A stretch of 64,000 nt of DNA from Myxococcota bacterium (GTDB taxonomy: Bacteria > Myxococcota_A > UBA9042 > PHBI01 > JAWLBL01), in the NCBI GenBank assembly GCA_041687695.1, contig JAWLBL010000016.1, positions 104,722 through 168,721 of the forward strand, read 5' to 3'. The notes below the pieces were generated by a model. It was not told where the DNA came from. It did not search any database and saw only the letters and a program-made list of their open reading frames with translations. Both the position numbers and the translations under genes were made by a program. Positions within the stretch are counted from its first letter, which is position 1. Each line of letters begins with the position of its first letter. Positions 19,674 to 34,761 of the stretch are shown here, in pieces.

Positions 19674-21146
19674 TCAGAGTCGGGTGGTGCGGGGACGCTC
19701 GCGGCCGCCGGGCGGGGCCGCCGGGACGTCGCCCACGATGGTGGCGGTGGCGCGCTGGCTGGTCAGGCCGGCCAGGGCGCGGCCCACCTCGGCGACGCGC
19801 TCGGAGCCCTGGCCCCGCTCGGTCATGTCGCGCAGGTAGCCTTCGAGGTCCACCTTGCCGTCGGCGATGGCCAGCGCGCCCAGGATGACGTCGATGATCG
19901 ACTTGGGATCCTCGATGCGCAGGATGTGCTCGCGGGGGATGACCGTCGCCCACTGGGCCAGGATCACCTCGTCCGAGTAGGCGTGGTACGGGTCGGCGGA
20001 CCGCTCGGCGGCCGGCTGCCGCTGGCCCGGGTCGTACTCGAAGTCGAAGACGGTCACGTTCGAGTCGTGGCGGGTCTCGCCGTTGGGGCTGACGACGCCG
20101 TCGACGTGCTGGAAGCGGCCGTTGACCTCGAGCTCGACGCGGAACGGCGTCGGGGCGCGCTTGGCCTCCTTGAAGGCGAAGTTCTGGACGTAGACCCGGT
20201 AGCGGCCGGCCGGCGCCTGGCCGCGCGCCCAGCGGACGTTCTCGACCGGCTTTTCGGTCTCGCCGCGGACGTTCATGTCCACGTCGAGCCAGCCGCCGCA
20301 GGCCGAGCGCTTGTGGCCGTAGTAGACCTCCTCGCCCGAGGGCGGGATCACGTGCAGATCCAGGTCGTTGCGGTCGTTCCAGATCAGCGAGGCGCGGATG
20401 TCGACCCCGTCGTACTGGCCGCCGGCGGCGGTGACGCGGCTGCGGATCTCGGCGTCGATGTCGCCCTTGCGGTCCTCGAGCGACTTCTTCGGGTGGATGA
20501 AGAAGACGTGGAACTTGTCCTGCAGGCGCCGGAAGGCCTCGGCGCTGTCGACGTCGCGCTCGAGGTCCTCGCCGAGGAGGCGGCGGACGTGCTGCTTGTC
20601 GACCGTGGGGTAGAAGCCCTCGTCGCCGACGAAGAAGAAGTAGCCCTTCTTGCCGGTCCCCTCGGCCAGCCGGACGCAGTTCGTCCGGCTGTAGAACCAG
20701 GCCGCCAGCTCGTAGGACTCCTGGCCCGTCCCGCCGCCGCCCTCCTCGATCCAGAAGCGCTCGAGCACCTCGTCGAGGCGGTTGTCGGCCTCGAACTGGC
20801 CGACCTGCAGCGGCGCGCGGTCGCTGTTGGCGTCGCCGATGGCGCAGAAGCTGATGCCCGGGCCCTCGATGTACCCCTTGAGCTCGATCTGCCCCATCAG
20901 CATCGGCAGCTTGTCGTAGACCAGCTTGGTGTCCTCGCCACGCGAGCGCGTCACGTCGAGGGCGACCACGATGGGCGTGACGTTGTTGACCTCGCGCACC
21001 TTGCCGTTCGGGTCCAGCGCCGGGTGGACCTGCGTGCGCCCGCCGGCGCCCGTGGCCGGCTGCTGGTAGGTGTCGTAGGCGAAGGCCGCGCGGTTGCTCG
21101 AGCGCGCCTCGAGCGCGACGTCCTGGCTGTAGTGTCCGCCTCCCAT
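19674..21146 (-). CDS. vWA-like domain protein with inserted YfaP/DUF2135-like domain
   Basis: MIDAS-like VVALDVTRS, AIGDA, GQFE, GGGG..ESYELAA, FFVGDE. Insert SLIWNDRNDLDLHV..GGWLDVDMN..PVENVRW. GAGGAGG RBS. Confidence 0.8.
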   Translation of the reverse strand: MGGGHYSQDVALEARSSNRAAFAYDTYQQPATGAGGRTQVHPALDPNGKVREVNNVTPIVVALDVTRSRGEDTKLVYDKLPMLMGQIELKGYIEGPGISFCAIGDANSDRAPLQVGQFEADNRLDEVLERFWIEEGGGGTGQESYELAAWFYSRTNCVRLAEGTGKKGYFFFVGDEGFYPTVDKQHVRRLLGEDLERDVDSAEAFRRLQDKFHVFFIHPKKSLEDRKGDIDAEIRSRVTAAGGQYDGVDIRASLIWNDRNDLDLHVIPPSGEEVYYGHKRSACGGWLDVDMNVRGETEKPVENVRWARGQAPAGRYRVYVQNFAFKEAKRAPTPFRVELEVNGRFQHVDGVVSPNGETRHDSNVTVFDFEYDPGQRQPAAERSADPYHAYSDEVILAQWATVIPREHILRIEDPKSIIDVILGALAIADGKVDLEGYLRDMTERGQGSERVAEVGRALAGLTSQRATATIVGDVPAAPPGGRERPRTTRL

Positions 21147-21166
21147 GGGGGCCTCCTCGGTGTCGG

Positions 21167-33481: not shown

Positions 33482-34761
33482 GGGCCTTCGTCGTGGCTGG
33501 CCTCGGCTTCGGCGACGAGGGCAAGGGCACCCTCACCGACTACCTGGTCCGCCGCCACGGCGCCCGCCTCGTCGTCCGCTACGGCGGAGGCCCGCAGGCC
33601 GCGCACCGCGTCGTCACCCCCGGCGGCCGCGTCCACGTCTTCGCCCAGCTCGGCAGCGGCGCCTTCGTCGACGGCGTCCGCACCCACCTCGCCGCCCCGA
33701 TGATCGTCGACCCGCCGGCGCTGTTCGCCGAGGTCGCCGCCCTCGCCGCCGCCGGCGTCCCCGGCCCCTTCGACGCCCTGTCCATCGACCCCGCCTGCGT
33801 CCTGCTCACCCCCTGGCACCAGGGCCTGGGCCGCCTGCGCGAGCTGGCCCGCGGCCCCGCCCGCCACGGCAGCTGCGGCCGCGGCGTCGCCGAGGCCCGC
33901 CTCGACAGCGAGAACCCCGGCCTGCCCACCCTGCGCCTCGCCGACACCACCGACCCCTGGCGCCTGCGCGCCCGCCTGCGCTTCATCCAGGCCACCAAGG
34001 TCGACCAGGCCGAGCAGCTCGTCGATCGCCAGCCCGACCGTCCGGATCTGCAGGCCGGCCTCGTCGACCTCCGCCGCCCCGACCGCCTCGAGCCCTACGC
34101 CCAGGTCTGCGAGGCCCTGCTGGCCCGCGTCACCCTCACCGCCGCCCCGCCGCTGCCGCCCGTCACCGTGTTCGAGGGCGCCCAGGGCGCGCTGCTCGAC
34201 CGCGATCACGGCTTCTGGCCGCACGTCACGCCCAGCCGCGCCACCTTCGCCGACGCCCTGGCGCTGCTGGCCGCCTGGGCCCCGGACGCCCACGTCACCC
34301 GCGTCGGCGTCCTGCGCGCCTACCACACCCGCCACGGCGCCGGCCCCCTCCCGACCGAGGACCCGGCGCTGACCGCCGCCCTGCCCGACGCCGACAACGC
34401 CGACCACCCCTGGCAGGGCGCCTTCCGCGTCGGCTGGTTCGACGCCGTCCTCGCCCGCTACGCCCTCGCCTGCGTCGGCGGCGTCGATCGGCTGGTCGTC
34501 ACCTGCCTCGATCGCTTGGCCGATCACCCCGCCCCGCGCCTGTGCGACGCCTACGCCCTCGGCGACCGCCGCCTGACCGACCTCGCCCCGGCCTCCGACC
34601 CCGCCGATCGCGACGCGCTGACCGCCTCCCTGCGCGCCGTCCGCCCGCTGCTGTCGCCCGCCCCCGACCTGCTCGCCGCCATCGCCCAGGCCCTGGGCCG
34701 CCCGGTCGATCTCGCGTCCTATGGGCCCACCGCGACCGACAAACGCGAACTCACTGAATGA
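33478..34761 (+). CDS. Adenylosuccinate synthetase-like protein (divergent PurA paralog)
   Basis: GLGFGDEGKG, RYGGGPQAAH, HGSCGRGV, FEGAQGALLD, TRHGAGPLPTE, RVGWFD, SYGP; ATGA overlap with the upstream gene. Confidence 0.9.
   Translation: MRAFVVAGLGFGDEGKGTLTDYLVRRHGARLVVRYGGGPQAAHRVVTPGGRVHVFAQLGSGAFVDGVRTHLAAPMIVDPPALFAEVAALAAAGVPGPFDALSIDPACVLLTPWHQGLGRLRELARGPARHGSCGRGVAEARLDSENPGLPTLRLADTTDPWRLRARLRFIQATKVDQAEQLVDRQPDRPDLQAGLVDLRRPDRLEPYAQVCEALLARVTLTAAPPLPPVTVFEGAQGALLDRDHGFWPHVTPSRATFADALALLAAWAPDAHVTRVGVLRAYHTRHGAGPLPTEDPALTAALPDADNADHPWQGAFRVGWFDAVLARYALACVGGVDRLVVTCLDRLADHPAPRLCDAYALGDRRLTDLAPASDPADRDALTASLRAVRPLLSPAPDLLAAIAQALGRPVDLASYGPTATDKRELTE

Follow-up and report, generated by a model that had tools for sequence, protein, structure and literature searches.

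A candidate composite system in a Myxococcota bacterium: a vWA protein, a predicted pseudokinase and an adenylosuccinate synthetase paralog encoded with an SPFH-like protein and a putative caspase-like protease

Gene content of the locus

The window analysed in this study is a 64-kb stretch of DNA from a Myxococcota bacterium (assembly GCA_041687695.1, contig JAWLBL010000016.1, positions 104,722 to 168,721), and the six genes in question, designated D, E, J, K, L and M, lie between its positions 19674 and 34761. They form two outward-facing operons, with E and D on the minus strand and J, K, L and M on the plus strand. According to our favoured reading, to which we assign a probability of about 55%, they constitute one composite system of two modules, a core trio E-D-M and a J-K-L module, coupled by the zinc ribbon and adjoining X region (zinc-ribbon+X) of E. 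Because the window has a G+C content of ~74%, genes were called using third-position GC frame plots and verified with Pfam. The six genes are the following:

19674..21146, minus strand: D, vWA-like protein of 490 amino acids (aa), identified by fold match, with no match in Pfam, NCBIfam or PADLOC
21167..22852, minus strand: E, zinc ribbon, X region and kinase-fold domain, 561 aa; Pkinase 34.6 bits (cut-off 31.7) and a weak DZR match
29200..31653, plus strand: J, SPFH-like/coiled-coil protein with five zinc ribbons, 817 aa; DZR and Zn_Ribbon_1 at 74-76 bits
31650..31928, plus strand: K, DUF5818-like protein of 92 aa; PF19135 at 25 bits, below the cut-off of 27
31925..33481, plus strand: L, two zinc ribbons and a Peptidase_C25 domain; PF01364 at 29.2 bits (cut-off 23)
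33478..34761, plus strand: M, adenylosuccinate synthetase (AdSS) paralog, 427 aa; PF00709 at 208.4 bits

A preliminary description of this DNA had proposed the same orientation, gene order and overlaps, all of which were confirmed by the GC frame plots, Pfam and the junction sequences. D begins 20 nt downstream of E and is preceded by a GGAGG ribosome-binding site; J/K and K/L overlap by the 4 nt GTGA, and L/M by ATGA. The right operon had been described as ending at 34761; its four genes are indeed joined, but that end is wrong, as the stop codon of M overlaps the start of the next gene, N, by a further ATGA that the description did not contain. The start codons of E and J are separated by 6,347 bp, occupied by a block of four genes outside the system.

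The claim that the kinase, the SPFH protein and the protease share a ribbon also held. The pattern C-x2-C...[FYW]C-x2-CG gave eight matches in the six frames of the window, one in E, five in J and two in L, with none elsewhere in the 64 kb.

Conservation of the two operons and the zinc-ribbon+X extension

Relatives of the locus were collected with one genome per species. A total of 541 of the 599 matched stretches encode a relative of M, and the best 80 loci were kept; these span Myxococcota, Chloroflexota, Actinomycetota, the candidate phyla radiation (CPR), Proteobacteria and other groups. In these loci, tblastn detected D in 73, E in 60, J in four, K in one and L in one at full length, a second L match being confined to the ribbon. 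In two of the seven loci lacking D, M is located at a contig edge. All-against-all clustering, with the window counted, placed AdSS in 81/81, D in 74/81 and the kinase in 63/81 loci, and the usual layout is a tightly packed, colinear E-D-M operon.

A second sample consisted of 401 Myxococcota genomes, in which M was accepted at E ≤1e-60. M was found in 24 of these genomes and the D family in 34, and at 22 of the 26 places where M occurs, D lies on the same contig within 14 kb. Eleven genomes have D but no M at this threshold; of three that were fetched, two carry a diverged M beside D and one is cut by the contig end. The link between this vWA type, the 'DWC' kinase and divergent AdSS genes, which had previously been suggested, is substantiated by these counts.

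The two operons are directly adjacent in several relatives. In loci L073, L004 and L005 they are divergent without any insert (D<-E | J->...->M), and Myxococcota genome G271 (locus L088) contains all six genes, with J-K-L-M and E-D divergent and ~1 kb apart. The block of four genes is missing between E and J in all four of these loci. Including the window and L003, J is located between E-D and M in six independent loci. This synteny supports the earlier proposal of a single system whose two halves are separated by 6.3 kb of unrelated genes, and we consider it highly probable that the two operons belong to one system. In the closest relative (L003:2700-5360), the E-J intergenic region contains an inserted gene or genes other than those of the window, and the divergent E-J promoter region seems prone to insertions.

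The N-terminal part of E shows a restricted distribution. In the window, E comprises a zinc ribbon (residues 17-35), an X region extending to approximately residue 280 and the kinase-fold domain. Alignment to E starts at residue 9-17 only in J-containing loci (4/4 of the 80, plus L088); in the other 56 loci with an E match, it starts at residue 240 or later. The X region has homologs next to stand-alone J or J-K-L genes, where tblastn with E residues 17-300 matched proteins in L085 (1.7e-16), L086 (6e-11) and L087 (1e-6). Two of these three proteins combine X with a double zinc ribbon and an FHA domain (DZR-X-FHA). Judged by these homologies, the kinase appears to have gained the docking module of the J-K-L platform in this trio lineage, which provides a domain-fusion argument for functional coupling. 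Linkage by shared ribbons, as first proposed, therefore stands in broad terms, and is refined here to the zinc-ribbon+X N-terminal module that the kinase carries only where J is in the locus.

J itself (residues 60-760) was detected in nine of the 401 Myxococcota genomes in a stricter first look. J-K-L occurs with neither D nor M nearby in genomes G297 and G172 (loci L085 and L087), and J alone in G262 (L086). Adjoining the stand-alone module are genes for the DZR-X-FHA protein and for an active, SHOCT-containing Ser/Thr kinase. Because such genes neighbour the stand-alone modules and X homology connects them to E, we regard J-K-L as a platform separable from the trio, operating in other loci together with kinase/FHA signalling. 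This separability was absent from the preliminary description, as were the small number of loci with K and L, the carriage of the trio by phages and plasmids, its ties to NAD and NrtR genes, and the presence of a canonical purA elsewhere in the genome.

Predicted properties of the encoded proteins

M matches PF00709 over model positions 1-410 of 416 with 208.4 bits (cut-off 27). It falls below the purA equivalog cut-offs (TIGR00184, 147 vs 395.55; NF002223, 181.2 vs 402) and below that of PurZ (NF038379, 49.8 bits vs 300), and a canonical purA scoring 572 bits on PF00709 is present elsewhere in the same genome. Residues were mapped by alignment to E. coli PurA, with conservation taken from 30 aligned members of the M subfamily; residue roles and numbering follow the E. 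coli enzyme. M keeps the P-loop GDEGKG, Asp13, K16, His41, Gln224, Thr239 and the guanine-specifying Asp333 and Ser414, and these guanosine triphosphate (GTP)-binding and catalytic residues are invariant or nearly so in the 30 members; Lys331 is not conserved. The aspartate loop Thr300-Thr301-Gly-Arg303-x-Arg305 aligns to W-Q-G-A-(gap)-F in M (W-Q-G-x-F in the family), Val273 is replaced by an invariant His (His286), Asn38 by Gln, and T128-T129 by S-[C/V/T], preceded by a new invariant R129-H130. From its sequence, M is accordingly an AdSS paralog with a retained GTP/catalytic core, a putatively rebuilt substrate pocket and no recognizable aspartate loop. That the system would modify a purine nucleotide, as suggested earlier, is consistent with the retained catalytic residues of M.

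In comparison with known enzymes, M resembles PurA (EC 6.3.4.4; PF00709; E. coli structures such as 1ADE and 1CG3) in its full-length fold and GTP/catalytic residues, and PurZ in being a re-specified PurA copy carried by phages. It differs from both in the substitutions and scores given above, and from PurA in its pairing with a vWA protein, with a heterocomplex predicted on the helical subdomain.

A truncated gene for a pyruvate-kinase barrel (~312-338 aa), matching pyruvate kinases at E 2e-13, was observed near the AdSS paralog in six loci. It lies directly upstream of M in L006:9005-9943, L007:5765-6736, L012:9048-9986, L020:1218-2192 and L064:9033-9995, and ~3 kb downstream of the paralog in L016. 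Its product could be a GTP-regenerating or phosphoenolpyruvate-using partner.

D has no match in Pfam, NCBIfam or PADLOC, the TerY models included, and a protein atlas contained matches to D only among clusters named 'hypothetical protein' and none to the X region of E. Sequence-profile searches of PDB sequences gave no useful match for D or L. The AlphaFold2 (AF2) model of D, however, with a mean confidence (pLDDT) of 81, had integrin beta-I, ArnAB and pilus-adhesin (SpaC) vWA domains as its top Foldseek matches (E ~5e-8, probability 1.00). The metal-ion-dependent adhesion site (MIDAS)-like motif D64-x-T66-x-S68 is well preserved in the family alignment, with D64 and S68 invariant and T66 at ≥90%. 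On the basis of the model, D was assigned a vWA fold with a putative MIDAS motif. Members of the family also start with an invariant Met-Gly and have a GGGG loop, and most of them end in Arg-Leu; in the window, D has a C-terminal helical domain and an ...RL end.

Long forms of D, including that of the window, contain a beta-sandwich insert of ~150 aa (D residues 228-378; 20013-20465). The label 'vWA/YfaP' given to D in the preliminary description is therefore supported by fold for vWA, while 'YfaP' rests on a sub-threshold match of this insert to DUF2135 (E 0.029). The insert is 37-53% identical to a segment of hypothetical proteins of ~670-690 aa (phrog_1735; loci L096 and L097). Such a segment is carried by Kuttervirus, Bacillus phage SP-15, Brevibacillus phage Sundance, Caulobacter phages and others, and also occurs on Bacillus and Vagococcus plasmids. 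Against PHROGs, D matched phrog_2971 and phrog_1735 and E matched phrog_3043; families were found for D, E and M and none for J, K and L.

Complex prediction for D with M gave an interface score (ipSAE) of 0.67 as the median of three runs, compared with 0.00 for the best of three controls. The same mark was reached by 116/157 solved complexes and 2/215 mismatched pairs, a calibration that is approximate here, since custom alignments were used. At least 64% of the contacts were common to the runs, with a partner pLDDT of at least 75. The predicted interface joins M 146-184, in the helical subdomain, with D 78-90, the helix following the MIDAS loop, and with D 415 and D 440-450. These models support binding of D to M.

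Additional D-family genes were observed in other settings. The genome of the window contains a second, short D-family vWA gene (G000:C39:30635-31534; locus L089:9636-10598) with an MGGG start and no RL end, far from any AdSS gene, with a gene for an AMP-binding enzyme on one side and one resembling Mur ligases on the other; ligases other than M may thus be partners of D-family proteins. Two or three tandem D paralogs adjoin a single AdSS paralog in G175:C60, G355:C38, G310:C30, G147:C77 and G277:C10.

The catalytic loop of the kinase-fold domain of E has the sequence H-G-N-L-D-P-S-H; the family pattern is H-G-[A/N]-v-x-P-x-H. The 57 aligned sequences retain the alphaC Glu, the Lys that binds ATP and, within the D-W-C that replaces DFG, the Asp that binds metal. 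The position of the HRD Asp is occupied by A or N, and the catalytic-loop Asn is lacking as well. E is predicted to be a pseudokinase or an atypical kinase, because this catalytic Asp is missing.

J is composed of two N-terminal zinc ribbons, an SPFH-like domain split by two ribbons, a coiled coil of ~330 residues and a C-terminal ribbon. Its match to Band_7 was sub-threshold (E 0.0036; 17.8 bits vs a cut-off of 23.6). The SPFH assignment made earlier is nevertheless backed by the fold search: the AF2 model (pLDDT 70) had prohibitin, stomatin, HflK/C, flotillin and major vault protein as top Foldseek matches, with E values from 5e-5 and a probability of 1.00. J is thus modelled as an SPFH fold that precedes a coiled coil. 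J showed no transmembrane segment, its maximum 19-residue Kyte-Doolittle average (1.61) lying inside the SPFH domain, and hydropathy revealed no convincing transmembrane helix in any of the six proteins. Consequently, the term 'membrane-associated' used for the system in the preliminary description is unsupported.

Every locus with L also has K, placed between J and L; homologs of K occupy this position in L003, L085, L087 and L088, and the one in L085 matches PF19135 at E 5.9e-4. The PF01364 match of L covers only model positions 63-140, and the dyad H257-G258 ... C303 is invariant in 23/23 aligned sequences. By these motifs, L is assigned as a putative clan-CD (C25/gingipain-like, caspase-like) cysteine peptidase. 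Its family is rare, comprising 25 proteins among 5.8 billion clusters.

Three known classes were compared with the locus, and PurA/PurZ, the TerY-P triad and SPFH-protease cages each fail on a defining feature as a class for the system. In SPFH-protease cages (HflK/C-FtsH, stomatin-NfeD/STOPP, prohibitin) and the major vault protein shell, the likeness to J lies in the SPFH domain with a long coiled coil, and J is encoded with a protease. J differs in having no membrane anchor and five zinc ribbons, two of which interrupt the SPFH domain, and its partner L is predicted to be a clan-CD cysteine peptidase rather than FtsH or NfeD. The TerY-P triad is described as a TerY vWA protein, a Ser/Thr kinase with a zinc ribbon and a PP2C phosphatase (PMC11090510, in the part available). 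The trio is similarly a mobile three-gene cassette in which a vWA protein and a kinase-fold protein able to carry a zinc ribbon are tied to other modules. Its third gene, however, is an AdSS-like ligase, its kinase lacks the catalytic Asp, and D matches neither the Pfam vWA nor the PADLOC TerY models, its vWA fold being seen by structure only. Pfam found no PP2C domain in any gene from 15980 to 39020, and the only SpoIIE/PP2C-type match in the loci examined was in L010, a locus without D and E.

Genomic context, proposed role and alternatives

The trio adjoins NrtR or nicotinamide adenine dinucleotide (NAD) genes in 37 of the 80 loci. The gene immediately upstream of the kinase is NrtR-like (NUDIX+NrtR_WHD) in 35 loci, mostly from Actinomycetota. 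Four CPR loci (L006, L007, L012 and L016) have a NadE-NadD fusion or NadD beside the trio; the first three also contain ADP-ribosylglycohydrolase and isochorismatase genes, and L007 and L012 a NUDIX gene. The cassette also occurs in phages: the vWA part of D has matches in ~200 records of Mycobacterium phages, and of the 215 phage records matched by M, 201 are from Mycobacterium. Genes 270-273 of phage I3 encode a kinase, a D-like protein, a 112-aa product and an 'adenylosuccinate synthetase', and on a Rhodococcus megaplasmid the kinase-like, D-like and AdSS genes are followed by a NUDIX gene. Phages are known to carry the NAD+ reconstitution pathways NARP1 and NARP2 (Adps, Namat, NampT, Nmnat), which are likewise phage-borne nucleotide-metabolism cassettes linked to NAD/ADP-ribose genes; the trio differs in containing none of the NARP enzymes. 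Since the cassette in other lineages sits under NrtR or among NAD-salvage genes, and occurs in large phages, its most likely role would be in nucleotide or NAD/ADP-ribose homeostasis under stress or phage-host conflict.

In the AdSS reaction, GTP phosphorylates the 6-oxo group of a purine nucleotide, and an amine then displaces the phosphate. By analogy, M, held by D, would use GTP to activate the 6-oxo group of a nucleotide resembling inosine monophosphate (IMP) and would probably join to it an amine other than aspartate, given that the aspartate-binding loop has been lost. D is modelled to bind the helical subdomain of M through the helix following the MIDAS loop and the C-terminal domain, and is probably an obligate regulatory or substrate-presenting subunit. 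E would bind a nucleotide but lacks the Asp needed for ordinary phosphoryl transfer; it is therefore probably a sensor or switch, gating the complex in response to a nucleotide or to a phosphorylation state. In loci with NrtR, induction of the cassette would follow a build-up of ADP-ribose, a sign of NAD consumption.

The J-K-L module would combine a soluble SPFH/coiled-coil protein able to form cages with a small protein and a protease of clan CD. It was presumably attached to the trio in the lineage of the window, as E there acquired the ribbon+X module that FHA proteins carry. The complex would then be docked through this module of E to a soluble SPFH cage holding L, and L may process or destroy a component of the system or a target. 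A later insertion of four unrelated genes would have split the shared divergent promoter region in this genome.

Several observations weigh against the composite system proposed here. Most trio loci (76/80) lack J-K-L, J-K-L is present without the trio in G297 and G172, and only the window, L003 and L088 combine the trio with K and L; the coupling is thus lineage-specific and could be mere adjacency. M and D are on separate contigs in G285, G224 and G299, and no D was found in G319, which has M. Neither the window nor the other Myxococcota loci show the NAD/NrtR link, and the only Nudix gene of the window is 12 kb away and has no NrtR domain. The D/M score is the model's own confidence, obtained with alignments outside the calibration set. 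Finally, among five CPR genomes examined, two have both a canonical purA and the paralog, and in the other three the paralog is the sole PF00709 gene found; with a purB-like gene in 4/5, a plain AdSS role in some CPR bacteria is conceivable.

An alternative is an anti-phage or abortive-infection system, in which E and D would sense infection, M would make a toxic or signalling nucleotide or deplete GTP/IMP, and the SPFH cage with L would execute the response. Caspase-like proteases and SPFH proteins recur in conflict systems, which can be counted in its favour, as can the patchy spread (M in 24 of 401 Myxococcota genomes) and the carriage of the trio by megaplasmids and phages. The vWA+kinase logic is also like that of the TerY-P triad, which, in the part of PMC11090510 available, includes anti-phage modules. 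A defence role had been put forward for checking in the preliminary description, and the check did not favour it. Searches of PADLOC-DB v2.0.0 matched D, J, K, L and M to no family and E to generic kinase models only (MkoA, PD-T4-6, mad6, PglW). The 57 neighbour proteins of 12 other loci from Chloroflexota, Proteobacteria and other groups were heterogeneous, with two of defence type (a CHAT-TPR protein and a HepT RNase) and the rest housekeeping or signalling. Heterogeneous neighbours and the lack of a specific PADLOC match leave the loci without a defence-island signature. Moreover, a role in metabolism or counter-defence would account at least equally well for the presence of the trio in ~200 lytic mycobacteriophages, and in CPR and actinomycetes the cassette is tied to NAD salvage and NrtR. 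We therefore regard the defence explanation as unlikely.

It is also possible, at a similarly low level of probability, that the trio and J-K-L are independent modules lying side by side in a few Myxococcota, the right 'operon' being a chance fusion of transcription units. This is what the stand-alone J-K-L loci (L085, L087), the J gene without a trio (L086) and the 76/80 trio loci without J would lead one to expect. In addition, M is ATGA-coupled to the unrelated prenyl-synthase fusion N, so overlaps alone are no proof of shared function. Chance association is, however, made less likely by the position of J between E-D and M in six independent loci, by DZR-X on E in all six J loci and in 0/56 other E loci, and by the identity of X as a module of FHA proteins at stand-alone J-K-L loci; J, K, L and M are also joined by 4-nt overlaps.

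The remaining explanation, that M is a second housekeeping adenylosuccinate synthetase (IMP + Asp + GTP) and D and E merely regulate AMP synthesis, draws on the full-length PF00709 match, the conserved P-loop, D13, H41 and Q224, and the CPR genomes (no other PF00709 gene found in 3/5; purB-like gene in 4/5), but is very improbable in view of the replaced aspartate loop, the change of V273 to an invariant His, scores far under the purA cut-offs (147 vs 395; 181 vs 402) and the canonical purA (572 bits) in the same genome.

The composite system, taken together with the proposed role, leads to a more ambitious picture, which we consider speculative and rather improbable as a whole. The vWA/PurA-like complex would perform a new GTP-driven C-N ligation, with a non-aspartate amine, on a hypoxanthine-type nucleotide, maybe derived from NAD or ADP-ribose, in a contest between bacteria and phages over NAD and nucleotide pools. 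In the lineage of the window, it would have been recruited via the E adaptor into a soluble, vault-like SPFH cage with a caspase-like protease. If true, this would represent a bacterial counterpart of a compartmentalised, protease-gated nucleotide-signalling machine.

The trio is of wider relevance, as it spans ultrasmall CPR bacteria, actinomycetes, myxobacteria, megaplasmids and ~200 mycobacteriophages. It comprises a re-specified textbook purine enzyme that apparently needs a vWA partner, and knowledge of its reaction would probably uncover a new nucleotide or a hitherto unrecognized step of NAD/ADP-ribose turnover, with a bearing on NAD-depleting immunity and phage counter-measures. The window serves as a 'Rosetta stone' in which a domain fusion ties the trio to a predicted soluble SPFH cage and caspase-like protease, supplying testable partners and a way to study non-membrane SPFH cages in bacteria.

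A search of the full-text literature, with subscription journals outside its scope, found no paper linking an AdSS-like gene with a vWA or kinase partner. In the available parts of a paper on Vi01-like phages (PMC10892097) and of an announcement of C1 mycobacteriophages (PMC9476963), the genes are co-mentioned only as a gene list, and the available part of a jumbo-phage survey (PMC7824862) does not mention the trio. The window contributes the J-K-L module, a docking fusion carried by the pseudokinase, a predicted interface between D and M, and a 6.3-kb insertion that splits the system.

The genes that separate the two operons and the gene that follows M are the following:

22853..29199, no strand assigned: intervening block outside the system, four genes
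23029-23496, plus strand: glyoxalase (Pfam), intervening block
23686-26625, plus strand: Cys-rich repeat protein of 979 aa, intervening block
26720-28120, minus strand: histidine kinase (Pfam), intervening block
28117-28770, minus strand: OmpR-type regulator (Pfam), intervening block
34758..37091, plus strand: N, CrtC/lipocalin and polyprenyl-synthase fusion, 777 aa (Pfam)

In the 80 loci, tblastn gave no match for the glyoxalase and only generic matches for the OmpR-type regulator. Queries N, O and P had almost no matches; N was matched in 1/80 loci, by its prenyl-synthase part only. Since N is not conserved with M in other loci, it is probably a neighbour and not a component of the system. 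The stretch 34758-39020 (plus strand) continues from N with a short-chain dehydrogenase/reductase (SDR) gene and then an NAD-epimerase gene, joined by another ATGA overlap, and the prenyl-synthase part of N scores 130 bits on a 'family 2 encapsulin cargo' model, under its cut-off of 450. Terpenoid-nucleoside biosynthesis by M together with the CrtC/prenyl-synthase protein, the SDR and the epimerase was considered and rejected, as these downstream genes do not adjoin M in other loci.

Further genes of the window were recorded with no system link seen: a 924-aa clostripain-family (C11) peptidase upstream of the locus (12465-15239, plus strand) and a WYL-WCX regulator downstream of it (40824-41945, plus strand). 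Two very large open reading frames have no Pfam match, the 979-aa one at 23686-26625 (plus strand) and one of 1426 aa at 47896-52176 (minus strand); in both, GC at the first and second codon positions is approximately equal. The 979-aa protein has a signal-peptide-like start and Cys-rich 'DCGG.C..C' repeats.

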